Origin: Dictyostelium discoideum
Lineage: Eukaryota
Direction of reading: 5' to 3'
NCBI GenBank assembly: GCA_000004695.1
Contig: CM000150.2
Location: 2,240,001-2,304,000, forward strand
DNA: 64,000 nucleotides
Of the stretch, positions 1 through 25,089 are shown piece after piece. The position numbers were made by a program, and so were the translations under genes. The notes beneath the pieces were generated by a model that was given only the letters and a program-made list of their open reading frames with translations, ran no database searches and had not been told where the DNA came from. Position 1 is the first letter of the stretch. Each line of letters opens with the position of its first letter.

Positions 1-3000
1 ACGAAGCAAATGTTTTAGATTATTTAAAAAGAGTAAAAGCAAGTAATTTAGAAAATTTAATGTTTTTCACAAACATAGATTCTTTAGAGGTTTCAATATT
101 ACCAGTGGGAAGTAAAAAATTAGAACAACAAATTTCAATTCATAAAAAATCAAGTTTATCATTAATTACAAACCAATATAATAATTTAATGAATATTCCA
201 ACACAAGTATCAGAATATACATTCACTATTATACCATCAGAGAAATCAAAGATAACTGAAAAATATATTATAGGTCAAGTAATTGAAGAAGATTTCAAAG
301 ATCTATCAGAATATCCAGATAATAAAGCATTGAAATTTTTATCAATCTATAATAATGAAAAAAGAAAACCAGTTGGAGGTGTCGCATTTAAATTACCAGA
401 TTTCTCACTTCCTGAATACAAATTCACACCAAAATCATTTTGTTATTTACCATACAAAGATTTAATTTCAAATATTCCAGTTCACATTCATGCAAACTTT
501 TCAACAACAAGTTCACGTGATATTTTAGAAAATGCCAAATCTTCAAATTTATATAATATTGAAGAGATACTCTCTAAAAAGGTTGATCAAGTAATACAAC
601 AATCAGATAGTTTCCAACTTTTTTGGAATCAATTAATTGTAACTGAAATTATAGCACCACTCTACATTAATACATTAACTCTTTTCAAAAACAAATATAT
701 TAAAGGTAATGATATAGATATAATTTCAAAATATCATGATTTCTATTACTCTCGTTTCCCAGTATTAAGTGATTCGTTGTCAAATCATTCAATTCTAGAA
801 ATGTTAGCAAATAAGTTTTACTCATTAGTAAATTCAGAGAATTCCGATGTATTCATCCATTACCCTGGTGTTGAAGTTTTAAAGAAACCAAAAGATACAT
901 TTTATGCAGAGTTGAGTTTCTTCTTATCAAATGCATATTCAGATTCAATTTTAAAGTGTATTAGTCACATTGGTTTCAATGTTAATGTTTGTCCATTTAA
1001 AATTTATTTTAGTTTTAAGTCACCAGATAACTGGTTAACAGAAGAAACAATATCAAATGCCTTGAAAGGAGAGAATTTAAATCCTCGAGTAATAAATACT
1101 CAAGATATTGCAAATATAATATTATATTTCTCAAAAATGCCAGAATATCTAGATAACTGCCAAGTATTGATTTTCAATGATAAAACAAGGGGTTTTGTTA
1201 ATATTGAAAACAAAATAATAAACCAACTATATAACCAAACTCATTTTGAAATGACTCAAGATGTTTTAAATTTAAAATTCATTGACAGTGAACTTACCAA
1301 TATTATCAAAATGTGTAAAAATCCTCTCATTTTGAATTCACTTAAAACGATTAACATCTTTGATTTCAACTATGTATGTATTCATATATCATATTAACAC
1401 TTTAATTTTAATATTAATTTTTTTTTTTTTTTACAAAACTAGGTTGATTTTTATTTCCACTATCTCTTACCAAATTTCAATATATTATCAGCTGAAAAAA
1501 ATATCTCATTTTTAAACAAATTATTGGAATACTTTACATTTGAAAAGAACTATGATTTTAAATCAATAGACCATCTTCTAATATCTAAAGATAGAATAAA
1601 AATACTAAAAGGTTCAAAAGTTTTTCCTTTTGTTAAAAATGGTATTCAAGAGTTTACTTTAATTTCAAAATTATTCAATCCAACATTTAAACAACATGAT
1701 TTCATATTAGATTATCCAGATTTAGATCATTCAAAAGAAAATATCAAAATTTTTAGATATTTAGGTATCAGAGATATATTAAAGAAAAATGATATTGTAA
1801 ATCAATTCAAAAAGATATCGTCAGAAGTTTATAGTGGAAACACACCTTTGGAAACCTTAATTGAAAGAGCACGTCTATTATGGAAATCAGAAAAATGTGT
1901 CAAAGTATTTAATGAATTGATAGAATTAAATATTGTACCAGTCAAAGAAAGTAATATCACTGGTAGTAGAAAAATATCATTAGGATTGATGCCAATTACC
2001 CAAGTATGCCACCATCTCTATGAAGATCTATATTTTTCAGTAAAACTACTTCAAGATGTAGATATTAAATACCCACCAGGATATGGTCACATTGACTGTG
2101 AAAAAATATTTGAAAATTTCGTTAATCTTCTTACAAACATCATAGATTGGAAAGAAGTAAAAGTAAATGGTAGTTTAGTAATAGACCCCAAAATCATACA
2201 AATGCTAATATCAATGTGTGGTCATTTAGAAAACTATACTGGTAATTTCTCATCAGAACTTGTAGAAAGAATTCAACGTATCCCAGTATTAAACTCTACA
2301 ATATCTATTGAATTTACAAATATAGTCATGGGAACTGATGCAAATAATTTGAAACCATTTTTCAATATTTTACCTTCAAATTTTTCAACTTTTAGAAATT
2401 TTTTCAGTAAAATTGGTGTAATAGAATTAAATCTAAACACAATTGTAATGGGATTAAATAGATTTTTACATGATGAGATTGATACTGCCGAAGGAATTAG
2501 ATCGTTAAACTATCTCTATGAATTATTATTTAGTTTTGGTAGTGAATTGGAAACATTTAAAGATGAACACCCAACATTACCAGTTTTCACTAAAAAAAGA
2601 TTTATAAAACCATCCAATCAAGTTTATTCATTCTCTGGTGTACCCACCGCAAGAATTTATACTGAATCATTTTATGAAATCCATGATTCAATTAGAGATA
2701 ATTATAAACAATTGGGTGTTTTAGAATTATCTTCAATATTAAGAGAAGAACTAGACAATGAACTCACCAACCTTGAAAATGAAGATTTGGAGGATTCAAT
2801 TGGAAAATTTTTAAATACCTTTATTAAGGAAAATCAACAATTTATTTCAAGAGTTAATCATCTACAGTTGAGTCAAATCTTGAAAATTACAGTTAAATCA
2901 GGAGACATTAGAACCAAATTCATTTTAAATGGACAAGATATCACTAAAAACTCAAAAACCAAATGTTTTTATGATCAACCAAATTCAACTCTTTATTTAG

Positions 3001-3566
3001 AAAAAGGTATTTCTAAAAGTGAAGCATTCAATTACCTATTTAATTCCACTGGTTTGAATGTAAACTCTTCAATTGTATCAAATCTAGAAAGAGAGTTTGT
3101 AAATGATGAACCAATTGTCGATCCAGTTGATAATTTCTTGGCTCAAACTAATCAAAATGTGGTTGTTAATTCTATTGATGACAACCATACAACTTTAATC
3201 CAAAAAATTCATTGTAGACACTACAACACCATTGCACTAAGAAATCGTGAAGCTGCTGAAACTTTATTCTACAATCAATCATTAATTAGACAATCAATTT
3301 ACTTTTACTATGTTTCAACAGATATGCTACTAAGAAGTCTTTTGGTTTTTTATTTTGATAATAATATTCCAGATTCTCTTTCAATTACTCGTATGAGAGA
3401 TGTATTATCCAGAAAATCAACTACAACCATACCACACATTCCAGATCGTTTCAATGATTTCAAAGAAGCCCACTTAAAAACAACAAACATCAATAGTAAT
3501 GATCTAATTGAATTTCGTTCAATTACTTCTCAACTATTAAACATTTCTAATCAAATGATGAATTAA
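1..3566 (+). CDS. Sacsin-like HATPase-repeat protein, upstream tandem paralog. 3' portion only; the 5' end lies outside the window. Exons 1..1373 and 1443..3566.
   Basis: Reading frame is open from nt 3 (EANVLDYLKRVKASNLENLMFF) and is collinear with 8991.. in the complete downstream copy. A GTATGT donor at 1374 and a CTAG acceptor at 1441-1442 join FDFNY|VDFYFHY in phase 0. The track ORF 1524..3566 starts at TTG, not ATG, and its frame is open back to the acceptor, so it is a terminal exon and not a separate gene. Stop TAA at 3564-3566. Confidence 0.7.
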
Positions 3567-4140
3567 TAGAAAATAAATAAATAATATATTAACTTTCTTT
3601 ACGTCAACCAAATTCAATTTATATTTTATACAAATGTATTTTTTATATTTTATATAAAAAAAAAAAAATTATGACCATTAATTATTTTAGAGTTTGTAAT
3701 TCTTTTTATTATCCTATTTTTATAATGAATTTGTTTCTGAATGAAACAATCGGTGATGGATTTAACCATACATTTGATTCAAATAAATTAGAAAATACAA
3801 TAATTAAATAAAAATAAATATATAAAAAAATTGTGTGCTTTTTTATTTTTTTTTTTTTTTTTTTTTTACATTATTGGAAATGAGGCAATAAAACCCCATT
3901 TGAATTAATTTTTTTTTTTTTTTTATTTTTGAGAATCTGGCAATTGAGATTTAACCCCCTTTTTTATTTATAATTTATCTCTTAAAATTTTAAGTGGTAA
4001 ATAATAAAAAAAAAAATTTTTTTTTTATTTTTTTTTTTTTTAATACTAATCATCACCACTTTTTTTTTTCTTTTTTTTTTTATTATTTACCTTAGTATTT
4101 TTATTTATTACATATTTAAATATTATTTTTAAAAGAGATA

Positions 4141-7100
4141 ATGCCCAAAACTAAAGATCAAAGACTCAAAGTATCTCATTCTTTAAGAAATAATCTTCTA
4201 AACTATCCAGTAAGTTCAAATAAATTTAAATTTTTTTTTTAAATTAAATTCTTTTTTTTTTATTTTTTTTACAAACACAAAAATTGTTTTTTTTTTTTTT
4301 TTTTTATGCTGACATGAAAAATATAATGATATTAATAAATTATAAAAAAAATATATGATAGGAATCAAAAATAGTTAGAGAGTTGATTCAAAATGCAGAA
4401 GATGCTCTAGCTGATACATTCATAATAAAGGTTGATGAAGGCTCATATCCAAATAATGGGTTATTAATTTCAAATGATAACCAAGAAATTGAAAGTTCAA
4501 AAGAATTATTAGGTCCATCAATTTTAATTTATAATAATGCAACTTTTCATGAACAGGATTGGGAAGGCATTTGTGAAATTAATCAAGGTAGTAAAAAAGA
4601 AAATTTAAAAAGTGTTGGCAATTTCGGTTTAGGTTTGTACTTTTTATTTTTTAAAAAAAAAAAATATATACATCTTATTCTAATTTTATTAATTCTTAAA
4701 ATAGGTTGGAACAGTGTTTATCATATAACAGATAATCCAATTGTTTATAGTGGTAATAATGTTTGGTTTGCAGATCCAAATGAAAGAATTGGTGGTGGTT
4801 TATTCTTTGATTTGGACGATGAAGATGATTATAACAAATGTTTTAGTTTTTTAGAGCCATTCATTCAATTCAAAGAATCAAATTGTAACCCAAAAGAATA
4901 TTTTAATGGTACAATCATTCGTCTACCATTGAGAATATATCCAAGTGAAATCAAAAAAGCTGTATTAACAATGGATGCCATAAAGAAAATTTTAAATGAA
5001 TTTTCAAAAGATATCAATGAAATATTGATTTTCTTAAAGAGTTTAGCATCAATTACCATCATTGTTAATAATCAGATAGTCAACTCTGTAAAAATAAAAA
5101 ATTATTCCAAAATTAAAGATCAAAGAGAAAAGGTATCTTTATTCTTATCAAAAATTGTAGATAATGAAATGAACAATCCAAGTAGTGCTGTAGAATTAGC
5201 TGAAATTTTATGCAGTAATAAATCACAATCAAATTGTGAATCTACATTTCAAATTGATTTAGAAATTTATAGAAATGGTGTCAGTCAATTAATTTCATAC
5301 TTGGTTTCGCAAGGTATCTATATTGATAGGAAATTAATTGAATTAGTTAAAAAGAATAAAGAAATCAAACTCATATCATATGGTGGTGTAGCAGTTCCAA
5401 TCAGTTTAGATAGTTCAATAAATTTCAAAGGTAAACCATTTACATTTTTACCAATTGGAGCATTAGTTTATGATATTCCTTTACATGTCAATGGTTACTT
5501 TAGATTAAGTAATGCAAGAGATAATATCATTTATTCGTTAACTGAAGTTGAAGAAGCATCTGAATCATTATCAAAACAATGGAATAAGTTTATATCAGAA
5601 ACTATTATTCCTTATTTCTATGTTAAATCGTTGGAATATTTAAAATCAAATTATCTTGTCAAACTATACAATTATTTCCCATACAAATGTAACAATGAAA
5701 ATTATCAAGGTCAAAGCCCAGCATATGATATATCAATCACTACAATGAAATCAATTATCGGTGGTAAATACTTTTTAAATTACTTCAATTCCCATGAATA
5801 TTTACCATTGATAGGTAGTTTAATCATTTCAAGTTCAGATATACCACCAGATTTCGTTTTAACCATCATTCGTGAACGTAACATTAAAACAATCTTTTTA
5901 TCAAATGAATTATTAAACCATTTTAATAATTTAAGAATTTCTTTACTTTGTTATTCTAAACAATATTTATGTAGTCTATTAGTTTCATCACCATTAAAAC
6001 AATACTCTGAAGATGTTATCAATTACATTTGTTGCACTGAAATCATTGAAGGTGGTCATTTAAATATGGTCAATATTTTACCAACAAATTCAAATAATAT
6101 TACATTAGATTGTTTAAAATCAACTCAAACACTCCCATATTTCCCATGCCAAAATTACCATAGTAATTTCGGCAGCCATATTAATTTTGGCATGGGACAC
6201 TCATATATAAATATAAATCAATTCCTTTACATGAGTGATCAAGTCTATGATCTCTTATTCAGGTACCATGGCCAAAGCTTGACCTTCCATTTAAAAATAT
6301 CAACAATGCCACCAAACTTTAGAAAATTTATTTCAGCAATTTGTAGAAAATATTGGAATATTGGAGAAATTAAACTTTCAAATTTTCTCACTAGTCTCAA
6401 ATCTTTAAGCAACAAATTTTTAAAAGAACATATAATAACAGTTTGGGGTTGTATCGATGAATTAGGCATAAATGAAACTTTAGAATTATCAAAAATTAGA
6501 TCCATACCTATTGTTCCATATAGATCGAGTCCAACTCAGACTGATGTCACTAGTTATGATAAATCTTCATTGTTAATGTACAGATCAAAACTCTTGCCAA
6601 TTGAACCAATATTAAACAAATTAAATATATATATAATAGAGGAAGAACATCAATTCAATAATTTATTACATGCAACGGCTTATATTTCAAAATTGTTAAA
6701 TTATCTTAAAAATGTAGATTTATCATTAGATTCAGATGAAATTGATAAATTAAGAATTTTTTTAGTCGAATCGATTCACCAAGCCTCTATTGCCGATATT
6801 TCAATTTTTTATAATTTACCAATTCACCCATGCATTGGAAACAGTGATCAAAAGTTTAGTAGTATAACTAATAATAGCATATGTGTGGATTATGAAAAAA
6901 TTGATCAATATGAAATTAAAGGATTGAAATTAATAAAGGTTAATGAATTATCAAAATATAAAAGAATTGTCGACTATATACCAACAAAACAAATTTTAAT
7001 AGGAGAAAAACAGGTTTATAGGTATTATTTAATTCAAAATATTAGTTCCTTTGAATTAAATGTTTCAATTGAAATTATTACAGAATTTTTAACTCTTTAT

Positions 7101-10100
7101 GGTAATCATTATATCAATGATGGTGCATTAAGAAAATTTAAATTTATTCCATCTGAAAATGATGTTTATTCAACTCCTGATTCATTTTATGTTTTAAGTC
7201 AACTCGAAAGGGATTTAATAAGAAATTTCGAACCATCTAAAATTTTAAATCAATCTTTGGATGGTTTAACTGGTTATTTATCTAAATTTGGCTTAAAATT
7301 TAAACCATCAGATAAACATATATGTTCAAAGGTTATTGATTTTCTTTCAAATCAAGATTCAATAGAAACCTATCAAACTTTTATGGATTATTTAAATCAA
7401 AGAGGTGAGAATATTGGTGATTCATTAATTGATTCTTTCAAAGATATCCCATTTATTCCATCCAGTGAATTCGATACCTATGATGGATTTGGCTCAAATG
7501 AATCTAAAATTTCTTTATCAGAGTGTGCATTATCAAGTTATAAAGATTGTTTATTCACTGTAAAAACTCCAATTAAAGTAATCAAAAATTACAAAAACCC
7601 CATTAACAAATACCTATCATCAAATTTAAATGATAACATTATTCAGCATTTGATTAATTTAAATTCTATGGAATTCAATGATGAAACATCATTCGATCCA
7701 AATATAATTTTCAACAATACCTATAAAAGAATTGATGATTTAATTAAAACTTCCAAACTAAATGATGAACAAAAAAAGAAAATCTCTCAAATTCAATTAA
7801 TTTGGTTAGATGGCCAATTAGTACCAAAAGAAAAAATATTTTATAATAGTCCAAACCCAAATTTAGATTTTAAACCTTACTTTTTTATCACCAAACCTAC
7901 ACAAGAACATCTCTTTAAATTTTTAAAATTAAAAGAAATACCAGATTTAAATGATTTCATTAGATTAATCAAATCTATTCAAGATACATATGATAAAGAG
8001 AGCTCAAATTCAATAGATTTATTTGAATTGGTTATTTATTCTCTCCAAAACCCTGCATTCAATAAAGAATTACTTATTGATTCAAAAATAAAATTACCAA
8101 CCACTGATAATCAATTTGTTGAATTTGAAAAAGTAATTTACATTGATCATTCATGTTTACCTCAAGAATTCATTGATTTAGGACACAGTGCATTACATAA
8201 TAAAATTTCTGAAAACACTGCATCAAAACTCAGTATTACAAAACTTTCTCAATTGATTCAAAGTCAAGTAGCATTTGAGAATTCATTTGGACAAAAAGAA
8301 GAATTAGTCGATCGTTTGAAACAAATTTTACGTGATTATAAAGTAGAAGTATTTTTAAACGAAATGGTTCAAGTATGTATTATCTTTCAAATTATTGATT
8401 TAATCATTACTCTTTTTTTTTTGAAATTGTACTAATTTTTTTTATTTTTTTTTAGAATGCTCATGATGCTGGATCAACAGAAGTAAAATTAATTTTAGAT
8501 TGTAATTCTTTAAAACAACAATTTTTAAAAGAAAATCCAGAGATAAGTACACTATGTAAAGATCTTCCATCATACTTTGAAAGTTCTTTACTTTTTTATA
8601 ATAATTCAGTTTTTACAGAAAAAGATATTAAAAATGTTCAAGTAATGTCAGCATCAATTAAAAAACAAGATGAAAATTCTATTGGTCAACATGGTTTAGG
8701 TATTAATTCTATGTATTCATTCAGTGATTGTCCATGTATATTAAGTGGTGAATATTTGATGATTTTCGATCCATTCGTAACACATATCGGTCAATCAATA
8801 AACTATTCACATGGTGCTAAATATAAAATTTCAGAATACAAAACATTTTTAAAATACTTTAAACCATTTCAACATTTACAATCAATTTTAGGTTTTGATT
8901 TAGATGATGGTAAATTTAATGGAACAATCATTCGTTTACCACTTCGTAAAACATTAAATGATGATCGTTTTATTAGTCCACAGAAATGGAACGAAGTAAA
9001 TGTTTTAGATTATTTAAAAAGAGTAAAAGCAAGTAATTTAGAAAATTTAATGTTTTTCACCAACATAGATTCTTTAGAGGTTTCAATATTACCAGTGGGA
9101 AGTAAAAAATTAGAACAACAAATTTCAATTCATAAAGAATCAAGTTTATCATTAATTACAAACCAATATAATAATTTAATGAATATTCCAACACAAGCAT
9201 CAGAATATACATTCACTATTATTCCATCAGAGAAATCAAAGATAACTGAAAAATATATTATAGGTCAAGTAATTGAAGAAGATTTCAAAGATCTATCAGA
9301 ATATCCAGATAATAAAGCATTGAAATTTTTATCAATCTATAATAATGAAAAAAGAAAACCAGTTGGAGGTGTCGCATTTAAATTAATAGATTTCTCACTT
9401 CCTGAATACAATTTCACACCAAAATCATTTTGTTTCTTGCCATATAAAGATTTAATTTCAAATATTCCAGTTCACATTCATGCAAACTTTTCAACAACAA
9501 GTTCACGTGATATTTTAGAAAATGTCAAATCTTCAAATTTATATAATATTGAAGAGATACTCTCTAAAAAGGATAATCAAGTAATACAAACAGATAGTTT
9601 ACAACTTTGTTGGAATCAATTAATTGTAACTGAAATTATAGCACCACTCTACATTAATACATTAACTCTTTTCAAAAACAAATATATTAAAGGTAATGAT
9701 ATAGATATAATTTCAAAATATCATGATTTCTATTACTCTCGTTTCCCAGTATTAAGTGATTCGTTGTCAAATCATTCAATTCTCGAAATGTTAGCAAATA
9801 AGTTTTACTCATTATTAGATTCAGATGTATTCATCCATTACCCTGGGGTTGAAATTAAAAAGAATCATAAAGATACATTTTATGCAGAGTTGAGTTTTTT
9901 ATCAAATTCTTGTTCAGTTTCAATACTAAAGTGTATTAGTCACATTGGTTTCAATGTTAAGGTTATTCCGTTTAAAATTTTTTTTAGTTTTAAGTCACTA
10001 CCAAACTGGTTAACAGAATATACAATATCAATGGCCTTGAAAGGAGAGGATTTAAATCCTCAAGTAATAAATACTCAAGATATTGCAAATTTAATATTAT

Positions 10101-12535
10101 ATCTCTCAAAAATGCCAGAATATCTAGATAACTGCCAAGTATTGATTTTCAATGATAAAACAAGGGATTTTCTAAATATTGAAAACAAAATAATAAACCA
10201 ACTATATAACCAAACTCATTATGAAATGACTCAAGATGTTTTAGATTTAAAATTCATTGATAGAGAACTTACCGATATTATCAAAATGCTTTTAGATCCT
10301 CTCATTTTGGATTCACTTAAAACGATTAACATCTTTGATTTCAACTATGTATGTATTCATATATCATATTAATATTTTTTTAATTATACATTAACATTTT
10401 TTTTACAAAACTAGGTTGATTTTTATTTCCACTATCTCTTACCAAATTTCAATATATTATCAGCTGAAAAAAATATTTCATTTTTAAACAAATTATTGGA
10501 ATGCTTTACATTTGAAAAGAACTCTGATTTTAAATCAATCAACCATCCTCTAATATCTAAAGAAAGAATTAAAATACTAAAAGGTTCAAAAGTTTTTCCT
10601 TTTGTTAAAAACGGTATTCGAGAGTTTACTTTAATTTCAAAATTATTCAATCCAACATTTAAACAACATGATTTCATATTAGATTATCCAGATTTATATC
10701 ATTCAAAAGAAAATATTGAAATATTTAGATATTTAGGTATCAGAGATAAATTAAAGAAAAACGATATTGTAAATCAATTCAAAAAGATCTCATCAGAAGT
10801 TTATAGTGAAAATACACCTTTGAGCATTTTAATTGAAAGAGCACGTCTATTATGGAAATCAGAAAAATGTGTCAAAGTATTTAATGAATTGTTAGAATTA
10901 AATATTGTACCAGTCAAAGAAAGTAATATCATTGGCAGTAGAAAAATATCATTAGGATTGATGCCAACTACCGAAGTATGCCAACATCGCTATGAAGATC
11001 TTTATTTTTCAGTAAAACTACTTCAAGATGTAGATATTAAATACCCACCAGGATATAATCAAATTGATTGTGAAAAAATATTTGAAAATTTCGTTAATCT
11101 TCTTACAAACATCAGAGATTGGAAATTGATTCAAGTAAATGGTAATTTAGTTACAGACCCCAAAATCATACAAATGTTAATATCGATGTGTAGTCATTTG
11201 GAAAACTATACAGGAAATTTCTCATCAGAACTTGTAGAAAGAATTCAACGTATCCCAGTATTAAACTCTACAATATCTATTGAATTTACAAATATAGTCA
11301 TGGGAACTGATGCAAATAATTTGAAACCATTTTTCAATATTTTACCTCCAAATTTTTCAACTTTTAGACATTTTTTCAGTAAAATTGGTGTAATAGAATT
11401 AAATCTAAACACAATTGTAATGGGATTAAATAGATTTTTACATGATGAGATTAATACTACCGAAGGAATTAGATCGTTAAACTATCTTTATGAATTATTA
11501 TTTAGTTTTGGTAGAGAATTGGAAACATTTAAAAATGAACACTCACCATTACCAGTTTTCACTAAAAAAGGATTTATAAAACCATCGAATCAAGTTTATT
11601 TATTCGATGGTGTACCCATTAAAAGAATTAATACTACATCGTTTTATGAAATCCATGATTCAATTAGAGATAATTATGAACAATTGGGTGTTTTACAATT
11701 ATCTTCAGTTTTAAGAGAAGAATTAGACAATGAACTCACCAACCTTGAAAATGAAGATTTGGAGAATTCAATTGGAAAGTTTTTAAATACCCTTATCAAA
11801 GAAAATCAAGAATTTATTTCAAGAGTAAATCATCTTCAGTTAAGCGGAATCTTGAATATTACAGTTAAAACAGGATATATTAGAACTAAATTCATTTTTA
11901 ATCGAAAAGATATCACTAAAACCTCAAAAACCAAATGCTTTTATGATCATTTAAATTCAACTCTTTATATAGGCATAGAAAAAGGTATTACCATAAGTAA
12001 AGCATTCAAATACCTATTTAACTCCACTGGTTTGAATGTAAACCCCTCAATGGTATCAAATCTAAAAAGAGAGTTTGTTAATGATGAACCAACTGATGAT
12101 AATTTATTCTTGACTCTAAACGTTGTTAATTTTGTTGATGTTAACCAAACAAAAATCCAAAAAAATCAATGTAGACACTACAACACCATTGCATTAAGAA
12201 ATTTTCAACTTGCTGATACTTTACTCAACAATCAATCATTTATAAGAGAAGCCTCATACCATTACTATGTTTCAACAGAAATGTCAATGAGAAGTCTTTT
12301 GGTTTTTAATTATAATGATATCCCCTATGCTTTTTCAATTACTCGTTTAAGAGGTTTATTATCTAGAATAAGTATTACAACTGAAACCATACCACAGATT
12401 CCAGATCTTTACAATAATTACAGACACACTCATTTAAAAAATGAAGAAATCAATCGTAGGGAACTATTAAGATTTCGTTCAATTTCAAATCAATTATTAA
12501 ACATCTCTAATCAAAAACTAAATGAAAATATATAA
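4141..12535 (+). CDS. Sacsin-like protein with at least 2 HATPase_c-type sacsin repeat regions, about 2670 aa. Exons 4141..4209, 4362..4632, 4705..8372, 8456..10348, 10415..12535.
   Basis: Exon 1+2 gives [38 protein letters not shown], which matches the sacsin N-terminus pattern (..L..[20 protein letters not shown]). Across intron 2 the frame reads GNFGLG|WNSVYHITD, which matches sacsin GRFGIGFNSVYHITD. Exon 4 opens a second repeat (NAHDAGSTEVKL..GQHGLGINSMYSF). Donors are GTAAGT (4210), GTTTGT (4633), GTATGT (8373) and GTATGT (10349). All exon phases are consistent, and the total of 8022 nt is divisible by 3. The GTIIRLPLR motif recurs in exons 3 and 4, showing internal repeats. Confidence 0.75.
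8991..12535. repeat. Downstream copy of a tandem segmental duplication; the upstream copy is 1..3566. The unit offset is about 8.97-8.99 kb.
   Basis: Direct comparison shows 1..60 matches 8991..9050 almost exactly. 1397 corresponds to 10372, 1524 to 10496 and 3566 to 12535. By eye, the encoded proteins are roughly 90 percent identical, with in-frame indels. Divergence is greater toward the C-terminus. Confidence 0.85.
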
Positions 12536-12669
12536 ATAATAATAAAAATAATAATTTAATTTTTAAATTTAATAAATGTGTATTTATTTATTTTTTTTTT
12601 TTTATTATTATTTTTTTTTTTTTTTTTGAAAAAATAATAGGAATAAAATATAAACTACCTATATAAATT

Positions 12670-12710
12670 TTTATTATATTTTATTATATTTTATTATATT
12701 TTATTTTATT

Positions 12711-12753
<43 letters not shown>

Positions 12754-12814
12754 TTGTATTTATTGTATTTATTGTATTTATTGTATTTATTGTATTTATT
12801 GTATTTATTGTATT

Positions 12815-12848
<34 letters not shown>
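12670..12848. repeat. Composite minisatellite: (TTTTATTATA)3, (TTTA)n, (TTTATTGTA)7, then a poly-T run.
   Basis: Read directly from the sequence. It lies in the 327-bp convergent intergenic spacer between the sacsin-like gene (stop 12535) and the GT13 gene (stop 12863). Confidence 0.9.
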
Positions 12849-12851
<3 letters not shown>

Positions 12852-12862
12852 CCAAAGTTTTA

Positions 12863-14746
12863 TTAAAATGATTTATCTTTACAAATACAAATTCTTGAAG
12901 CTTCGGATTTCTTTGGAGGTTTTGAAGTACAACTTAATTTACTATATTGATTTGTAGTCCAACAAATGCCATCTTTATCTTTGATTGGATAAAATGTATC
13001 GGTATTATTACTTGGTATATAGTTTACTTGACTACAATGTTGTTCCAATTGTAGTAAAACTATAGTACTATCAGTTAATAACATCATATCAGATTCTAAA
13101 CATGATACTTTATGTTTTTCACAAAAGTCTTTACAAGAGAAAACTTTTTCAGCCAAAGTAATATCCAATGAGAGATCTTTATCAGTTCTAAATAGCATAG
13201 TACTTGTTAAAGGATTTGTGATGGTTGGATCAAATTCTTCCTTTGGAAAATCATTGAAAAGTATACGTTGACTTTTATTTCTTTGTTGTTGACTATAGAA
13301 TGGTGAATAGGTACCAACCAAATAAACTCTTTTGCCAAAGAAAGTGGTCTCAATAACACCTTTATAGATACCTCTAACAGCGCCACCATTGCCTCTACCA
13401 ACCATTTGAAGTTTATCGATAACTGCATCCCATCTTGGATCGTCATTTGATTTTGCTGGTACATAATAAACGAATCTATTTGAAGTTGAGAACATCATTG
13501 GTATTGAATTTAAAGTATCAACTTCGGTGGCTCTCATAATACGTTTCTTTACTTGAAGATCGTATTCGGGTGAGAGATATTTTGAAAGATTCATATGATA
13601 GGTATGAATGGTGGTAATCTTTGGAAGATAGAAATTATAATTACCCCAACCATCTTTCTCTGGTTGATCTTTGAAGATTGAATCATAGTTTCGTTCTAAT
13701 AATGGAGCATGTTGCGAACGTGGAATCTCTGGAAAAATACAAGAATCACCAGAACGCATTGATTGTTGAACTATAACATCCCATGGTGTAGTTGATTCGA
13801 TTTGCCAATTTGGTTCAATACGTTTTTTATAGATTTCTCTTGAGATTAGGAAACCAAGTCCACCGAAATGATCTTGACGAAGGAATGAGAACTTATTCTC
13901 AAAGTTTGATCTTGATTGCTCAACATTCCATTTGAAACCATTATCATTCCATGCAGAAATACCAAATATGCTTGGATCATAATTCATCAACTTTGAAAGA
14001 TGATTAAAATACTCCAATGAATCTGGTGACATAATTAAATCCTCTTCTAAAAAGATAACTTTATCACTGGTTTCATTATTAAACATAAATGAAAAGATTT
14101 CTTTATAATGTGAATTCATATAGTATTGTTTCTCTTCATTTGATAACACTTGATTGGAATTTGAACCCTCTTGAGATTTCTTTGAAATACGATACTCTTT
14201 GGTTACATTATACTTTGATAATATATTTTGAACTGATTTACCATCATTGAAAACTTTAATTCTATCAATGTTTGCATTACAATTATTGATTAGATTTGCA
14301 AGTAAACGATCTAAATGTTTTGGTTTATTTGATGTCACAATTGCAATGGGTGGATGATCATATAACCTATCAAGATTAGCTGTGATATCAGAGTTCTTTT
14401 TAATTCTAAATTTTCTAACTCTTTCATTGTCTGGTCTAATTTCATCTAACCATTTAACTTTATATAAATCTGATTCAATGGTTGCGTTATTTAATTTCAT
14501 ATTCTCTTTAATTGTTTTAGTTAATTGACTATCACTCCATTCTGCTCTCTGTTGTTGTTGTTGTTGTTGTGGTTGTTGACCTTTATTATTATTATTACCT
14601 CCAACTACACCACCAACACCTCTTTGAGATCTCTCTCTAAAATTCTCTTCATCACTTGAAAAAATGAAATAAAATATGAGTAAAATAAAAACAGCTCCAA
14701 ATATTAACCTCTTTTTATTCGTAATTAAATTTTTACTATCAATTAT

Positions 14747-14749
<3 letters not shown>
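12863..14749 (-). CDS. Type II membrane glycosyltransferase of family GT13 (GnT-I / MGAT1-like) with an extra ~290-aa Cys-containing C-terminal region.
   Basis: Motifs SAWNDNG, FGGLGF, PWDV and PEIPRS align with MGAT1 SAWNDNG, FPGLGW, WDDW and PEISRT. An N-terminal TM segment (LIFGAVFILLIFYFIF) follows a short cytosolic tail. The ATG is at 14749-14747. The track ORF extends to 14881 only because the poly-A run reads as poly-Lys, which is rejected. Confidence 0.8.

Positions 14750-14816
<67 letters not shown>
14750..14816. repeat. A homopolymer of about 65 nt. It reads T65 on the plus strand, which is A65 immediately 5' of the GT13 ATG on the coding strand.
   Basis: Seen directly in the sequence. 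Confidence 0.9.
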
Positions 14817-15546
14817 GGTTTTTTTTTTTTTTTTATATATGTATATTTATTTGTGAATGTGTAAAAAAATATGATTACCAAATTAAAATAAAAAAAAAAA
14901 ATTAAAACATTTTGTGTGTGTGTTTTTTTTTTTTTTCTTTTTTATGACAAAAAAAAAAAAAAAAAAATAAATTAAATAAAATTAAAACATTTTTTGTAAA
15001 CAAAGAAAAAAATAAAAAAATACAAAATCAAAATAAAGTCAATGGTGTGTGTGTGTTAAATGAATAAAATTTTTTTTTTTTTTTCACTTTTTTCAGTTAT
15101 GTGTGTTATAATTAATTATAAATCCAAATTCAAATAATGACTAATTATTTATATTGAGCTTTCATTATTACCTATTTTTTTCTTTTTAAAAATTATTTGT
15201 ATTTTTTTTTTTTCAAATAATGTTCTTTTGGAAAAAAAAAAAAATCCAAAAAAAAAAAATAAAATTTTGATTTGTTGAAAACCAATTTCTGATTTTTTTT
15301 TTTTTTTTTTCAGCCGAAATCAACAAACTGTTTTAAAATAAAAAAAAAATTTAAAAAATAATAAAAATAATAAATAATAATAAACAAAAGACCATTAAAT
15401 AATAATTACCATTTTAGATTTTTAATAAAAAATGATGATTTTGTTTTGGATTTTTAATCTAAATCAATCGCTATTATGTATTTATTAATTTGGCATATAA
15501 TACAATTTTCCAAAGTGTACATCGTTTGGCTTATTCTTTGTTGTTG

Positions 15547-15586
<40 letters not shown>

Positions 15587-16022
15587 CTTGAATTCGTAGG
15601 TGGAAATAATTAGTCTGTTTTCTAACCATTGGTAATCAATACAAGAATTTGGATGGAATTTCTGGTCATATAGAACTGTCGCTCTTAAAAAAAAAAAAAA
15701 AAAAAAAAATTTAAATAAAATAAAATAAAATAAAATAAAATTAAAATTTTGATCATATCAAGCTTTTTTTTTTATTTTATTTTATTTTTTTTTTATTTAT
15801 TTTTTTTATTTTTTTTTTTTTTTTCGAATTTTGTTTTTTTTTTAATTTTTTTTTTTTTTTTTTTCTTGTGATCAAATTCATTGTTTTTGAATAATAAATA
15901 ATAATAATAATAATAATAATAAATAATAAATAAATAAATAGAATTTTCATAATTTTCAAATAATTAGAAATTCTTTTTTTTTTTTTTAAAAATTATTATA
16001 TATATATATTAAAAAAAAAAAA

Positions 16023-17759
16023 ATGAAAACTCCAACTAAATATTTCATTATATTTATTTTATTAGCTGCTTTAGCAGTTTTTGTATCTGAAGCCACTTCA
16101 AAAGTTGGACAACAAACAACCACAACTACTCAACAAGTTAAATGTTCAGGTTTACAATGTACTCTCAATAAACTTATTGTTGCTGGTATGTAAATTGATA
16201 AAAAAAAAAAAAAAAAATAAAAATAAAAATAAAAAAAAAGAATTTTTAAAAATCCAAATTAATTAATATTTTTACAAATATATTAATATTAAATTTATTT
16301 TATTTTATTTTTATTTTTTATAGTTGGTAAATTTACAATTAAACAAATTTTAGTTGGAATTGTTATTGTATTAGCAACAATTGCATTACATCAACAATAT
16401 GTTATTACACAAAAGAAAGGATCATTACCAGGACCATCATTCGTTCCACCATTCTTTGGTATGCTTTTCCAATTGATCTTCACTCCATTCTCATTCTATG
16501 AAAAACAAGAAAAGTATGGACCAATCTCATGGACATCAATTATGAATAAATTTGTACTTTTTGTCACTGATGCCGAGATCAATCGTCAAGTTTTCAAGGA
16601 AGAGAATGCCAAATTGTACCTTTCATTGGGTGCAAAGAAGATTCTCACTGAAAAGGCCATTCCATTCATTGAAGGTGCTCCACACAGACAATTACGTAAA
16701 CAATTGTTACCATTATTCACCATTCGTGCTCTTTCATCCTATCTTCCAATTCAAGAATCCATCGTCGATGAACATATTGCCATGTGGATTAAAAACGGTA
16801 AAGCCGATATCAACGCTCGTAACAATTGTCGTGATCTCAATATGGCCATTTCAACCGGTGTTTTCGTAGGTAACAATACACCAGAATCTGTTCGTGATGA
16901 TATTGCCAAGAATTTCTTTGTCATGAATGAAGGTTTCCTTTGTCTCCCAATCGATTTACCAGGTACCACTCTCCGTAAGGCAATCAATGCTCGTGTTCGT
17001 TTAGTTGAGATCTTCACTGATATCATCGCCAAAAGTCGTAAGAGAATGGGTGATGGTGAAAAACCACAATCTCTCATTGATCTCTGGGTTGAACATTTCC
17101 TCAATTGTCCAGAAGAAGAAAGAGATGAACTCAGCAATGACACTATTATCTTTACTCTCTTAAGTTTCATGTTTGCCTCTCAAGATGCTCTCACCTCTTC
17201 ATTGGTTTGGACCGTTCAATTAATGGCTGAACATCCAGATATTCTCGCTAAAGTTAGAGCCGAACAAGCTAGCCTCCGTCCAAATAATGAAAAATTAGAC
17301 CTTGATACCATGAGACAAGCCACCTACACTCGTATGGTAGTTTCTGAAATCCTTCGTTTCCGTCCACCAGCTGTTATGGTTCCACATGAAAACATTGAAG
17401 ATATCGTCATTGGTGATAATGTTCACGTTCCAAAGGGTACTATGATTCTTCCATCCATTTGGTCTGCTCACTTCCAAGAAGGTGGTTACTCTGATCCATA
17501 CAAATTCGATCCACAACGTTTCGATTCTGTCCGTAAGGAAGATGTCACTTGTGCTAAAAACTCACTCGTCTTTGGTGCTGGTCCACACTTTTGTATTGGT
17601 AAAGAACTCGCTAAAAATCAAATCGAAGTTTTCTTAACTAAATTAGCAATGTCAACTGAATGGACTCACAACAAAACTCCAGGTGGTGATGAAATTATCT
17701 TTGGTCCAACTATTTTCCCAAAGGATGGTTGTAACATTACTATTAAAGCTCGTAATTAA
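16023..17759 (+). CDS. Cytochrome P450, possibly CYP61/CYP710-like sterol C22-desaturase. Exons 16023..16185 and 16324..17759.
   Basis: Heme-binding signature FGAGPHFCIGK, with His in place of the usual Arg as in CYP61/710. LPGP..PFFG lies near the N-terminus. The TM anchor ILVGIVIVLATIAL is in exon 2, which has no Met before MLFQL, so an upstream exon is required. A GTATGT donor at 16186 (phase 1) and a TATAG acceptor at 16319-16323 are phase-consistent with the ATG at 16023. The exact family assignment is tentative. Confidence 0.7.
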
Positions 17760-18508
17760 ATTTAAATATTTAATTTCAATTTAAAATTTAAAAAATAAAA
17801 ATAAAAATAAAATAAAAAAATAAACAACAATACATATAATTTTGTTATTATTTAAATAAAAACTTTATTTATTTTTTTTTATTTAAATAATAACAAAATT
17901 ATTTATTAACTTATTTTTTTAAATCTATTATTATTATTATTATTTTCTCATTTTAAAAAGATTAATTTTTGTCAATATTTTTTTTTTTTTTTTTTTTTTT
18001 TTGAATTATAAAAATTGTAATCAAAATATTTTTTAATTTTTTTTTATTTTAATAATTCCAAAAATAGATCAAAAAAAAAAAAAAATATCCTTTTTTTTTT
18101 TAATTTCATTAAATAATTAATTCACCATTGTTCAATACTTTTATTTATATTGAAAAAAAAAATGAAAGCTTCTTATTGATTTTACCACTCACACACATTT
18201 TCACACCAAATTCAAAAAATTACTTAATATTAATTCCAACAGTTAACACAGTATGTGTGTTTGTGTGTGAGTGAGTAGTGGATATCATTGTGTTATATTA
18301 AATAATTAATGAAAAAAAAAAAAAAAAAAAAAAAAAAAATAATAATAATAATAATAATAATATATGGAATAAAATAAAATAATAATTTTAAAAATATAAA
18401 TAATTAAAATAAAATAAAAAAAAAAAAAAATCACTATACAAACAGATTGGCATTATTAATAACAATACAAATTTATCTGTACAAAATTATAATTAAAAAT
18501 AAATAATT

Positions 18509-18554
<46 letters not shown>

Positions 18555-18755
18555 AAATCAAATATAAATAATATATAATATAATATATATATATTTATAT
18601 TTATATTTTTTTTTTTTTTTTTTATTTTTTTATTTTTTAAAAAAAAGGAATAGGAAAAAAAAAAAAAGTGGTTTTGTTGTTTTGTACATCACCACAATAA
18701 AAAATTTAAAATTAAACTCAAAATCGAAATAATTTAATCATTATTTAAATCACAA

Positions 18756-20867
18756 ATGAATCAAAATTTTGGGTTTAAACTTTTTTTCCTTTTTTTCTTT
18801 TTTTATTTTTTTTTTGGTATAAATTGTTCTCAACAACAACAAAAACAAGAACTTCAAAATAAAAATTATAATAATATTTTAAATTATTTAAATGAAACTT
18901 TTAATAATAATAATAATAATAATGATAAAAGTAATATAAATAATAATTTAAATAATAATAATAATATTAAATTATGGGTATTTTTTAATTCAAAAGAAAT
19001 AATAAAAGTTAATAATAATAATCATAATGATATTAAATTAAAAATTGGTATTAATAATGAATCAATAAAAAGAAGATCAAAATTATTAAAAAAACAAATT
19101 ATAGATGATACAGATTTACCAGTTTCAGAAAATTATATAAATCAAATTTTACAATGTAATAATAAAATTGTTAAACTTGGATATAAATCGAATTGGTTAA
19201 ATTCAATTTCAATTTCACTTTTATTTGATGATACAGATAAAGTTTCATCAGCATCCTCATCTTTTTCACCATTGTCTAGAATTGAAATTATTGAAAATAT
19301 TACAAAATGTATAGTTTTGAAACCATTTGTTGAAAAGATTGATATTGTTTCAAAATTAAAAAAAGTTAAAGAATCAGAGACAGTTACACCAACACCACCA
19401 TTGGAGAGTACTTCAGTTAATGAAACATTTTATGGTAAATCAGCAGATGGTATTAAACAGATATCAATGGATAAATTGATAGAGATGGGATTGGATGGTA
19501 GTGGGGTTGTAATATTAATAATTGATGATGGATTCTATAAGGATCATCAGTGTTTTAAAAAATTAAGGATTCTTGGTGAACTAAATTTGGATCAACAATC
19601 TCCCCATATGAATGATACACAAGATAGACCAATGATGGAGGAAGACCATGATCATGGTACTGCAACACTATCAGTTTTATCATGCGATATGCCAGGTGTG
19701 ATGATTGGTGGAGCACGTAATGCATCCTATCTATTGGCAAGAATAACGATATTCGATGAAATCGATAGTTACATTGAAGAGGACCAATGGGTAGTAGCAT
19801 TGGAATGGGGTGAAAAAATGGGTGCTGATTTAGTTTCATCATCTCTTAGTTATTTATTATCTTTCAATTACAGCTTTGCCGGATTGGATGGTAAAACCTC
19901 TCACACAACAATTGCAACCAATTTGGCAAGTTCCAAAGGTGTACTTATTGTAAATAGTATGGGTAATAATGATTTTAGTATATATGGTGCACCAAATGAT
20001 GGTGAAAATGTCATATCGGTAGGTGCTGTAGATAGAAGGGGTAATATGGCATACTTTTCATCTATTGGTCCAACTGCAGATGGTAGAATCAAACCTGATA
20101 CCCTAGCATTGGGAATTGATATCTATGTAGCATCCATTAGTGGTCCTTCAAATTTCACTCGTATGAGCGGAACATCATTCTCTTGTCCATTGGTCGCTTC
20201 TGCAATTGCATTACTAATGCAAGCTAAACCCAATTGGACTTCAACACAACTTCACGAGGCAGTTATTGATTCTTGCGAATGGTCAATTTATCCACATTAT
20301 TACATGGGTTGGGGTATTTTTAATGTATCGAAAGCATTATCATATAAACCAATTCCAATGAATAATACTTGTTTTAATAATTGTAATTCAAGTGGTTTAT
20401 GTTGTAAAATTTCAAATAACAATTTTAATAATAATAATAATAGTTTATCCACACATTCAACATCCTCATCATCAATATCTCAACAAAATTATTTTAATTC
20501 ATGTAATTGTGCAAATGCATATTATGGTAGATATTGTCAATATAAAAGGATAGAATGTGGTTATCGTTGTAAATATGATTTTCTAGGTGAAACAAAATGT
20601 CAAAAAAATAATTTTAATGATAAAATTTCATTTAGGTGTATAAAATCATCACAATATAATAATTCAATTGTAAATTTTGACCCATATAAAATTCCAACCA
20701 CTTGTAAAATTATTGGTGATACTCGTCCTAATCAAAATAAATTTATTAATGACGATAATGATAATGATGATAATAATAATTCTTCAAATAATAACAATAA
20801 TAATAATTTCAATTTATTTAATAATTATTTATTTAAATTATTTATTTTAATTTTAATTTTAATTTAA
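18756..20867 (+). CDS. Subtilisin-like serine protease (S8) with an I9-like propeptide, an EGF-like Cys-rich region and a hydrophobic C-terminal tail that is likely a GPI signal.
   Basis: Catalytic triad context: IDDGFYKDHQCF (Asp), HGTATLS (His), GTSFSCPLVASAIALL (Ser). A signal peptide is present. The C-terminus is FKLFILILILI. Single exon. Confidence 0.85.
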   Translation: MNQNFGFKLFFLFFFFYFFFGINCSQQQQKQELQNKNYNNILNYLNETFNNNNNNNDKSNINNNLNNNNNIKLWVFFNSKEIIKVNNNNHNDIKLKIGINNESIKRRSKLLKKQIIDDTDLPVSENYINQILQCNNKIVKLGYKSNWLNSISISLLFDDTDKVSSASSSFSPLSRIEIIENITKCIVLKPFVEKIDIVSKLKKVKESETVTPTPPLESTSVNETFYGKSADGIKQISMDKLIEMGLDGSGVVILIIDDGFYKDHQCFKKLRILGELNLDQQSPHMNDTQDRPMMEEDHDHGTATLSVLSCDMPGVMIGGARNASYLLARITIFDEIDSYIEEDQWVVALEWGEKMGADLVSSSLSYLLSFNYSFAGLDGKTSHTTIATNLASSKGVLIVNSMGNNDFSIYGAPNDGENVISVGAVDRRGNMAYFSSIGPTADGRIKPDTLALGIDIYVASISGPSNFTRMSGTSFSCPLVASAIALLMQAKPNWTSTQLHEAVIDSCEWSIYPHYYMGWGIFNVSKALSYKPIPMNNTCFNNCNSSGLCCKISNNNFNNNNNSLSTHSTSSSSISQQNYFNSCNCANAYYGRYCQYKRIECGYRCKYDFLGETKCQKNNFNDKISFRCIKSSQYNNSIVNFDPYKIPTTCKIIGDTRPNQNKFINDDNDNDDNNNSSNNNNNNNFNLFNNYLFKLFILILILI

Positions 20868-20958
20868 TATTGCAATAATATAATTAATAATAATAATAAT
20901 TTATTTATATAAAATTAATATAAATAAATAAATATATAAATATATTAAATATATATCT

Positions 20959-20995
<37 letters not shown>

Positions 20996-21573
20996 ATTGA
21001 AAAAAAAAAAAAAAAAAAAAAAAAAAATTATTTTAAAGACACACCACGATACATCATCAAATTACAAATTTTTTTTATTATAAATTAAAAATTTTTTATT
21101 TTTTAAATAATTAAAAAAATGCTATGTTAATTTTTTTTTATATAAATTTATATATATAATTAAATACCCTTTTTTGTCATACCATTGTTTTTTTTATTAT
21201 TTTTTTTAATAATTTTGATAATCTATTAATAGTATTAAAATTAAATAGTTCTATTTTTAGAAATTTTTGTATGTTTGGGATTATAGTGAGTGTTTTATAT
21301 GTGAATTTAAAAAAAACCCCTCTTTTTTTCAAAATCAAATATACGCAGACAAACATTTGTTTTTTTAATTATATTTTATTTTTTTTTATTTTTTATTTTT
21401 TTTTTTTTATTTATTCAAATATTTCTTTTCTATTTTATTACTTCGTATAAAAAAAAAAAACAAAAAAAAAAACCAATTATTAAATTCCATCATTGCAAAT
21501 ATTTATAAAAAATATATATTAAAAATATAATTTTATAATAATAAACAATTATTGTTTTAAAAAAAAAAAAAAG

Positions 21574-21617
<44 letters not shown>

Positions 21618-21645
21618 AATAAATAAATAATTAAAATTTAATAAA

Positions 21646-23586: not shown

Positions 23587-24501
23587 TAAATATTTTTAAT
23601 TTTAACAAATAAATAAAATTTATTATTATTATTTTTTTCTTATTTGTTAAATAGTTTTTCTTTTTTTTTTTTATTTTTCTTTTATTTAATAATATAAAAT
23701 TTTTATTAATTTTGTAGTGCATAGAGCAATTGCTTTTAGCTCGATTTCTTAGTAGAAAGAAATTGTTGTTGTTGATATGGTTTCTGTTTTTGTTTGTATG
23801 AATTTGAAGAGGTGTGACTGTAGAGTGAGAGCAATGGTGAGAGTATTTTTTATTTTTTTTTTTTTTAAAAAAGGTTAATAATTAATTGAAATTAAAAATG
23901 GACAAAATTTATATTTAAATATATTTTTAGTTATTTGAATGTATATTAAATATGTTTTTATTTATATAAATATCAAATAAATAAATTAATCCAATATTAA
24001 TTATTATAATTTTTTTTATTATTTTTTTGTAAGGTTTGATAATTTTTGCACATCTCCAGCTCTCAGACAAAACATTTCTTTTTTATTTTTCTTTTTATTA
24101 AAAAAAAAAAAAAAAAAAAAAGAAATCGCCTACCCGGAAAGCTGGAGTGAGCCAAAAGTTAATCAAATTTTACCAATAAAAATAATAATAATAATAATAA
24201 ATATTAATTTTTTTTTACTAAATTCTAAGTGAATTTCTTTTTTACCAAATTCTAAAGTGACTTTATTTGATAATAAAAAAAAAAAAAAAAAAAAAAAAAT
24301 TTATATATATATTTTTAATTAATAAAAAAAAAAAAAAATATATAAAAAAATTAACAAAAAAGAAAAATATTCAATAAAAAAAAAATATTCAATAAAAAAA
24401 AAAAAAAAAAAATAGAAAATGAAAAGTAAAAAAAAACAATTTAATTATTTGTACTAATTTTTCTTTATTTAATAAAAATTAATAAAAAAAAAAAAATAAT
24501 T

Positions 24502-25089
24502 TTAAATACAAATTCCAGATGAAATTGGTAAATTTAAAAGATTACCTGAGGGACTACACATTTTAGTCCAATTTGAGCATTGTGACATACCTTCCATTTG
24601 AAGACACAAAGAGGAGTAAATTGGAAGTACAGCACAGCTTGGACTTAATTTTGTACATTTTTCACAGCCATCCATTGCCATATCATTACAAATACTTTTA
24701 ATACTTGAAAAGATATCCATAGTTTTTGGGAGATTTTTAATTGATTGTATTCTTGAACATTGTTTAATAACAGAATCTTTTGAACATAACTTTTTAAAGT
24801 TATTACATCCACTCATTCCTGGCATATCATGGGTACAACTATCACCGAGTATTGAAAATTCATCACAAGTACCATTTGAAGATCTCACTTGTTTACATGA
24901 TTTTTGAATTGAACAAATTGGCATGTATGGCATACTAGAGCATAGACGGTTAATATCTACTCTAATATTAAATATTGGATATTCATAATTAACACAACTT
25001 GGGTCATTTGAATGTGTAACACAATCAATTTCTCCTTTAATTTTATATATAAAACTAATTAAAATTAATAATATATTTAATATTTTCAT
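24502..25089 (-). CDS. Small secreted Cys-rich protein (195 aa) built from repeated Cys-flanked MxxM modules. Candidate metal (Cu) binding protein.
   Basis: Signal peptide MKILNILLILISFIYKIKG. An internal duplication pairs CTHDMPGMSGCNNFKKLCS with CLQMEGMSQCSNWTKMCS, and CSSMPYMPIC with CNDMAMDGC. Single ORF. Confidence 0.6.
   Translation of the reverse strand: MKILNILLILISFIYKIKGEIDCVTHSNDPSCVNYEYPIFNIRVDINRLCSSMPYMPICSIQKSCKQVRSSNGTCDEFSILGDSCTHDMPGMSGCNNFKKLCSKDSVIKQCSRIQSIKNLPKTMDIFSSIKSICNDMAMDGCEKCTKLSPSCAVLPIYSSLCLQMEGMSQCSNWTKMCSPSGNLLNLPISSGICI

Follow-up and report, generated by a model that had tools for sequence, protein, structure and literature searches.

The window analyzed here is a stretch of 64,000 nucleotides (nt) from Dictyostelium discoideum (GenBank assembly GCA_000004695.1, contig CM000150.2, positions 2,240,001 to 2,304,000 of the forward strand). 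At its start lie two sacsin-like genes in tandem: the 3' 3.6 kb of DDB_G0268850 (copy A) and the whole of DDB_G0268852 (copy B). Positions 1..12,535 are very probably the last two of three head-to-tail genes of this kind (DDB_G0268848, DDB_G0268850 and DDB_G0268852) on chromosome 1 of strain AX4. Each gene would encode about 2,660 amino acids (aa) in five exons, separated by four short AT-rich introns, with two SACS units that each begin with an Hsp90-like domain of the ATPase fold and with a helical, degenerate HEPN end, and together they would form an amplified array shaped by gene conversion. Copy B was modeled by hand from GT..AG sites over 4141..12535, with the ATG placed at 4141, and domain coordinates were converted via its exon map. 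Where the list below speaks of the ORF lister, it refers to the program-made list of open reading frames (ORFs) in the window.

1..1373, plus strand: copy A (DDB_G0268850), exon 4, of which only the 3' part falls inside the window; in frame from base 3 and part of the exact protein suffix described below; the 90.5% DNA identity to 8991..10348 begins here and continues onward.
1374..1442, plus strand: copy A, last intron, 69 nt, GTATGT...CTAG, phase 0, in-frame TAA at 1395-1397; its removal reproduces the annotated protein.
1443..3566, plus strand: copy A, terminal exon 5 including the stop; the TTG-start ORF 1524..3566 is its 3' part.
3159..3563, plus strand: copy A, last 135 codons, putative HEPN-like C-terminal domain of the '...QMMN' type; aligns with the modeled copy-B domain.
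3567..4140, plus strand: AT-rich spacer of 574 nt between the copies, part of the repeat unit; presumed promoter and 5' untranslated region of copy B.
4141..4209, plus strand: copy B (DDB_G0268852), exon 1, from the ATG, 23 codons; model identical to the annotated protein.
4171..5075, plus strand: copy B, first SACS (PF25794) Hsp90-like domain, aa 11-237, Pfam E = 1.2e-51; spans introns 1 and 2.
4210..4361, plus strand: copy B, intron 1, 152 nt, GTAAGT..AG, 11% GC.
4362..4632, plus strand: copy B, exon 2, with the ELIQNAEDA motif of the first sacsin repeat.
4633..4704, plus strand: copy B, intron 2, 72 nt, GTTTGT..AG, in frame and stop-free; read through by the ORF lister.
4705..8372, plus strand: copy B, exon 3, 3,668 nt.
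8295..9121, plus strand: copy B, second SACS domain, aa 1311-1558; spans intron 3.
8373..8455, plus strand: copy B, intron 3, 83 nt, GTATGT..AG, splitting EMVQ from NAHDA in the second sacsin repeat; an intron at this position is also present in the models of D. citrinum and D. purpureum.
8456..10348, plus strand: copy B, exon 4; the repeat is visible in the window from 8991.
10349..10414, plus strand: copy B, intron 4, 66 nt, GTATGT...CTAG, phase 0; contains a TAA in frame.
10415..12535, plus strand: copy B, terminal exon 5 including the stop; the TTG-start ORF 10496..12535 is its 3' part.
12128..12532, plus strand: copy B, last 135 codons, putative degenerate HEPN-like domain of the '...QKLNENI' type.

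The first 14 kb were compared with the whole window by BLAST, a self-comparison that an earlier note on this DNA had proposed. The search gave a single long off-diagonal alignment: positions 1..3586 are collinear with 8991..12541, in an alignment of 3,598 columns that has 90.5% DNA identity, 59 gap positions and E = 0. The two copies are offset by 8,990 bp, which bears out the tandem duplication with a unit of about 9 kb claimed in that note. No further long repeat touching 1..12,535 was detected in the self-BLAST; the remaining matches were of AT-rich, low-complexity DNA at about 12.5-12.9 kb. Two sequences of a second strain (GCA_054859385.1, labeled D. discoideum) were merged to 44,160 bp and used as a stand-in for the AX4 DNA upstream of the window. 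Window positions 3908..12541 align as a single block with an upstream copy in that strain (merged coordinates 9803..18443), and the spacer aligns with the spacers there. The locus thus shows the hallmarks of a tandem array: the copies run head to tail, and the unit, of which the spacer is a part, is constant in length. Between the proteins of copy A and copy B, 984 of 1,151 aligned residues agree (85.5%), and all indels are in frame; the earlier estimate of about 90% at the protein level was slightly high, as 90.5% is the DNA figure. The two C-termini read as reported before (...NISNQMMN in copy A, ...NISNQKLNENI in copy B). The GC content of the window is 16-32% per 2-kb window and about 25% across the sacsin genes; together with the short AT-rich introns and the match to an AX4 protein, this marks the window as nuclear DNA of a eukaryote.

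The copy-B model has a coding sequence of 8,022 nt without an internal stop, and its introns have a GC content of 11-14%. Two of the three upstream introns fall inside the sequence for conserved sacsin motifs, one between GNFGLG and WNSVYH and the other between EMVQ and NAHDA. If intron 2 is left unspliced, 24 spurious residues are inserted in the conserved GLGWNSVYH motif. Because this intron is in frame and has no stop, the ORF 4383..8435 contains the residues LYFLFFKKKK..., which are intron 2 read-through; they are gone in the spliced model that matches DDB_G0268852. The ORF list breaks at both last introns because each of them holds an in-frame stop, and the frames that follow were listed with TTG starts because the program uses bacterial start codons. 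The frame of exon 5 is open back past the acceptors at 1443 in copy A and 10415 in copy B.

Taken at face value, the separate TTG-start entries in the list would make 1524..3566 and 10496..12535 independent genes, each with its own promoter and start. It is only by the tool's bacterial rules, however, that a TTG counts as a start, and within the terminal exon no in-frame ATG occurs before about codon 190. Furthermore, the 27 residues from the acceptor to the TTG (VDFYFHYLLPNFNILSAEKNISFLNKL) are conserved in all Dictyostelium homologs aligned, the spliced protein is the annotated protein, and in D. purpureum, which has no intron at the junction between NY and VDF, the coding sequence aligns across it without a gap. 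We have therefore rejected this interpretation, which is very improbable. The '680-aa TTG ORFs' are terminal exons cut short by a prokaryotic ORF finder and not genes. Cross-species comparison strongly indicates that exon 4 is spliced to exon 5 in both copies, and the same four intron positions are found in the gene models of the second D. discoideum strain and of D. citrinum. The proposal in the earlier note of two introns followed by terminal exons was hence correct: the parts are joined via GT..AG introns of 66-69 nt, and both spliced copies agree exactly with annotated proteins. For practical purposes, this shows how ORF tracks made for prokaryotes cut Dictyostelium genes apart at short, AT-rich introns and supply spurious TTG starts.

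In a database search and a string comparison the copy-B model was identical to DDB_G0268852 of D. discoideum AX4 (100% identity, 100% coverage, 2,673 aa). The translation of copy A (1,164 aa) is, by string comparison, an exact suffix of DDB_G0268850 (2,661 aa). A third AX4 paralog, DDB_G0268848, has 2,660 aa and is 83-86% identical; like DDB_G0268852 it is recorded on a contig of 4,923,596 bp, which we take to be chromosome 1 of D. discoideum AX4. DDB_G0268848 presumably lies 5' of the window, in the order DDB_G0268848, DDB_G0268850, DDB_G0268852, because the three genes have consecutive even locus tags. The guess that more copies exist 5' of the window is supported by this third paralog and by the four copies in another strain. 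The records label the three genes as hypothetical proteins, and the UniRef name is 'Sacsin/Nov domain-containing protein'.

A Pfam search with the 2,673-aa protein at E ≤ 0.01 found only SACS (PF25794), in two stretches at aa 11-237 and 1311-1558. Over the whole protein PF25794 scored 391.8 bits (E = 2e-117) against a gathering cutoff of 32.8, which places the protein in the SACS family; the search of the joined model with sacsin profiles that had been suggested thus gave a match above the gathering score, in two stretches. The N-terminal and C-terminal halves are 27% identical over 472 aa (E = 3e-26), i.e. the protein contains an internal repeat. The N-terminal Bergerat-fold motif E-x-x-Q-N-A-x-D-A and the motif G-x-G-x-N-S-x-Y define the SACS-domain family, and both are present in each repeat: ELIQNAEDA...FGLGWNSVYHITD in repeat 1 and EMVQNAHDA...HGLGINSMYSFSD in repeat 2. 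The protein does not have the full architecture of sacsin proper. It has two SACS stretches and one internal duplication in place of three SIRPT/SRR units, and it has neither a DnaJ domain before the C-terminal domain nor an N-terminal ubiquitin-like domain. In Pfam at the same threshold no DnaJ, ubiquitin-like or XPCB domain was found in the 2,673 aa. Ubiquitin (PF00240) was confined to vertebrate sacsins among the database matches. By analogy with human sacsin, the protein may act as an ATP-binding chaperone or scaffold.

The C-terminus was examined for a HEPN domain. In Pfam, the HEPN match of copy B stays below threshold (15.6 bits, where the cutoff is 22; E 0.018); for copy A there is none even at E ≤ 10. 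An hhalign comparison of the group-4 (D. discoideum/purpureum) C-termini with the HEPN ends of dictyostelid and metazoan proteins was not significant (probability 0.33%, E 0.18), and a profile search of PDB sequences with the C-terminus returned only chance matches (E > 1). The fold was modeled for copy B only: an AlphaFold2 model of its last 135 aa is a helical bundle, with a predicted local distance difference test score (pLDDT) of 73.6 and a predicted template modeling score (pTM) of 0.71. The sequence tests are weak, and the fold comparison is the sole informative one. The R-x4-6-H motif of catalytic HEPN ribonucleases was not found in the D. discoideum copies. The TRYP motif, which is invariant in other dictyostelid and in metazoan sequences, has no counterpart in them either; they have [RK]-x-x-H-L at this place or the basic residue is gone. 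With moderate confidence, and on the basis of the predicted fold, the last ~135 aa, which are the most divergent part of the paralogs, can be regarded as a degenerate HEPN domain without Rx4-6H. Because this ribonuclease motif is lost, the HEPN-like end more likely serves binding or dimerization than catalysis.

Sacsin-type proteins occur in every dictyostelid genome among the database matches, often in several copies, and sacsin with HEPN was already noted in Dictyostelium and Polysphondylium by Anantharaman et al. 2013 (PMC3710099). The earlier note called such proteins unusual in amoebozoa, which is not true of the dictyostelids, the group to which these findings pertain. At the syntenic site D. 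citrinum has just one copy, in the order 589-aa gene (uncharacterized), SACS gene, GNT-I gene (minus strand), P450 gene and two S8 peptidase genes; the genes downstream of copy B in the window (GNT-I, P450 and S8 peptidases) match those of D. citrinum. The strain GCA_054859385.1 has four head-to-tail copies with a mutual DNA identity of about 90%, followed by the same GNT-I, P450 and S8 genes. Its third copy (merged coordinates 18923..25082) is about 2 kb shorter than the others, has internal deletions and was called as fragments of 673, 1,079 and 114 aa; this copy is likely a pseudogene and an instance of copy-number polymorphism. The array therefore counts three annotated genes in AX4, four (one of them broken) in GCA_054859385.1 and one gene in D. 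citrinum. On one contig of T. lacteum there are three copies, which does not imply that they are adjacent.

Over window positions 12863..23586 the flanking housekeeping genes of GCA_054859385.1 and AX4 differ by a synonymous divergence (dS) of 0.035-0.13. Such values seem high within one species, and the assembly may represent a divergent lineage.

For the notion that the duplication is an artefact of assembly we found no supporting point. The two copies differ at 9.5% of their bases and by many indels, and the same array or a larger one is also present in independent assemblies from other strains and species. We rejected this explanation, which has hardly any probability left.

Among themselves all the D. 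discoideum copies share 82-90% protein identity, more than the 72-74% that they share with the D. citrinum protein, and the similarity between copies is not uniform along the gene. Within the first ~800 aligned bases of the 3.6 kb, copies A and B are 97-98% identical, whereas they are 94-95% identical to their counterparts in the other strain (A with c2, B with c4). In the last ~650 columns the relation is inverted: A and B are 76-82% identical and the strain counterparts 93-96%. Of the codons for identical amino acids, 12 of 408 carry silent changes in the first 450 codons, compared with 30 of 351 among the final 450 (p = 0.0012, Fisher); the dS between A and B rises from 0.05 to 0.29 along the shared region. 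The closest pair among the AX4 proteins also shifts along the alignment. DDB_G0268850 and DDB_G0268848 are closest at both ends, DDB_G0268852 and DDB_G0268850 in columns 600-1,200, and DDB_G0268852 and DDB_G0268848 (98%) near column 1,500. In segments, then, paralogs within a genome are more alike than orthologs between genomes, as would be expected for an array with conversion. The mosaic similarity is consistent with gene conversion or recombination between the copies, from which the 3' end would escape.

Selective constraint was estimated as the ratio of nonsynonymous (dN) to synonymous divergence by the Nei-Gojobori method. The dN/dS was 0.62 between copy A and copy B, 0.39-0.45 between strain counterparts and 0.33 between either copy and D. 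citrinum; in the flanking GNT-I, P450 and S8 genes it was 0.04-0.11. The sacsin-like family evolves fast yet is not free of constraint, and the frames of the two copies in the window are still open over a long distance. In the last ~130 codons the comparison of A with B gives a dN of 0.265, a dS of 0.260 and a dN/dS of 1.02, against 0.43 in the rest of exon 5. The dN of 0.265 between these paralogs exceeds the 0.20-0.21 to D. citrinum, despite a lower dS. When strain counterparts of one and the same C-terminal type are compared, the dN/dS is 0.38-0.43, with small counts of 9-12 silent and 16-18 replacement changes. As far as these small counts go, the sequences fit a fast divergence of the C-terminus after duplication and then a renewed constraint. 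The earlier note had singled out the C-terminus as the most divergent part and under relaxed constraint, and the dN/dS of about 1.0 agrees with this. Its wording 'relaxed constraint or subfunctionalisation' comes close to a putative pattern of divergence followed by constraint, for which the counts are small.

The same ratios might be taken as a sign that one of the window copies is a decaying pseudogene, in which the high dN/dS and the divergent C-terminus reflect a loss of function. The overall value of 0.62 and the value near 1.0 in the last 130 codons would fit this; furthermore, copy A lacks even the weak Pfam HEPN signal of copy B, and another strain does contain a clearly broken copy. 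But the frames are open over 2,673 and at least 1,164 codons in DNA with about 25% GC, in which stops arise easily; the indels are all in frame and the splice sites are intact. In addition, each C-terminal type appears to be under purifying selection between the strains (the dN/dS of 0.38-0.43 from the small counts given above). For these reasons the pseudogene interpretation was rejected; it is improbable.

Two S8 (Peptidase_S8 subtilase) genes on the plus strand downstream of the array, at 18756..20867 and 21646..23586, are 45% identical over 417 aa and form an older tandem pair. Their identity to the D. citrinum proteins is 85% and 79%, compared with 98% for the adjacent P450, so that they too change quickly as proteins between species, though the dN/dS of the first S8 gene is low (0.08-0.11).

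A further possibility is that the array is under diversifying selection, in which the gain of copies and the rapid change of the HEPN-like end are adaptive and not the outcome of neutral relaxation, as in families that are in conflict with pathogens, mobile elements or other strains. Tandem expansions occurred independently in D. discoideum and D. purpureum, T. lacteum has three copies on one contig, and the copy number varies between strains. The dN/dS is 3-10 times that of the neighboring genes, and the paralogs have gained more replacements in the C-terminus than separate them from D. citrinum, in spite of the lower dS. HEPN domains and expanded sacsin paralogs have also been tied to conflict systems (PMC3710099). 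Against this stand three observations: the dN/dS is clearly above 1 in no window, the C-terminal estimate comes from ~130 codons, and the neighboring S8 peptidase genes also diverge quickly in protein sequence. The loss of the ribonuclease motif points in the same direction. Diversifying selection is thus a rather unlikely, though not negligible, explanation of these sequences. More doubtful still is the idea that the sacsin-like arrays of social amoebae are a conflict-related family and not housekeeping chaperones, in which the diversified HEPN-like end would supply specificity or act as the effector against pathogens, mobile elements or strains that are not kin.

The reading that we prefer is that of an amplified array with conversion between its members. 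The ancestral gene would have been a single copy between the gene for the 589-aa protein and the GNT-I glycosyltransferase gene, an arrangement that still exists in D. citrinum. Unequal crossing-over could have amplified a unit of 8,990 bp, i.e. the gene with its 574-bp spacer. This would have happened after D. discoideum and D. citrinum split, because the dS between paralogs is 0.12, against 0.50 to D. citrinum. Gene conversion would then keep parts of the copies alike, while the 3' HEPN-like end may have escaped and split into two sequence types. Judged from the sequences, repeated lineage-specific tandem amplification via unequal crossing-over is the simplest reading.

Several points weigh against this account. 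The physical order of the three AX4 genes is derived from consecutive locus tags, the 4,923,596-bp contig common to the records and the arrangement in the other strain. The splicing depends on gene models, which are themselves predictions, and on cross-species collinearity. The clustering of paralogs by species could also be explained by an older duplication that was later homogenized, together with a loss in D. citrinum. Finally, the biochemical function is derived wholly from human sacsin.

The genes are already in the public annotation, and the premise of novelty in the earlier note was wrong. The feature is known and annotated; the gene family evolves fast but is an ordinary one, of modest evolutionary interest. 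No paper in the library searched mentions any of the three locus tags, and because of this the evolutionary pattern of the array appears to be undescribed; it is nonetheless a common kind of pattern. As a discovery the locus carries little weight, since a model organism's public annotation already lists the genes and slime-mold homologs of sacsin were described in 2013. Its value lies in being a clean, dated case of array growth, with one copy in D. citrinum versus three or four in D. discoideum and with putative conversion over most of the unit, from which the 3' domain escapes.

The remainder of the window contains a few other features. Of two tRNA-Asp(GTC) genes, separated by about 12.5 kb, one is on the minus strand (25531..25603) and the other on the plus strand (38096..38168). 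Close to the second of them, at a distance of a few hundred bases, are two ORFs on the minus strand, 34361..35842 and 36876..37646, in a region of low GC (17-21%); one has an integrase zinc-binding (H2C2) domain and its neighbor has no Pfam match. Together, 34361..37646 are probably the remnant of a tRNA-targeted retrotransposon. The plus-strand ORFs 47976..50951 and 51362..54601 have a zf-UBP finger at the extreme end of one and a UCH domain in the next, and their GC content (28-32%) and AT skew are unusually high. Both ORFs (47976..54601) probably belong to a single large deubiquitinase gene that an intron divides, an artefact of the ORF track like that in the sacsin genes. A Kelch-repeat and RING-finger protein (26964..29912, plus strand), an RNA cytidine acetyltransferase of the NAT10/TmcA type (41503..44460, minus strand) and a protein kinase (57918..60545, minus strand) are also encoded; nothing unusual was seen in these three genes.

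When compared with known systems, the window genes are the same genes as the GenBank/dictyBase entries DDB_G0268852 and DDB_G0268850, which stand with DDB_G0268848, and there is no structural difference. In D. purpureum (DICPUDRAFT_78657, DICPUDRAFT_97832 and a third gene) at least three copies, each of about 2,670 aa, follow one another head to tail, as in D. discoideum, and two of them are 90% identical. The D. purpureum array is at another locus, however, with Rhomboid and Syja_N genes as neighbors, and its genes have five introns at different positions and none at the junction between NY and VDF. Its copies are only about 34% identical to those of D. discoideum, which fits an independent expansion. 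The sacsin-like proteins of T. lacteum, P. violaceum and H. album (about 2,660-2,730 aa) have two SACS units and a C-terminal domain, like those of the window. They retain a clear Pfam HEPN (e.g. E = 7e-15) and the TRYP motif, whereas the D. discoideum/purpureum group lacks the motif and has lost the Pfam signal.

Human sacsin (SACS) has 4,579 aa and is mutated in the ataxia ARSACS (spastic ataxia of Charlevoix-Saguenay, with autosomal recessive inheritance). Its function is still poorly understood, and for this reason the simpler two-repeat paralogs of a genetically tractable amoeba could serve as a model for it, an idea that is independent of this window. The human protein has three repeats, while the Dictyostelium protein has two, is without the ubiquitin-like, XPCB and J domains, and ends in a HEPN that appears degenerate. 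The two proteins are 26-30% identical, over only about 15% of the query. Unlike human sacsin, the sacsin-like genes of Dictyostelium form a multi-copy tandem array.

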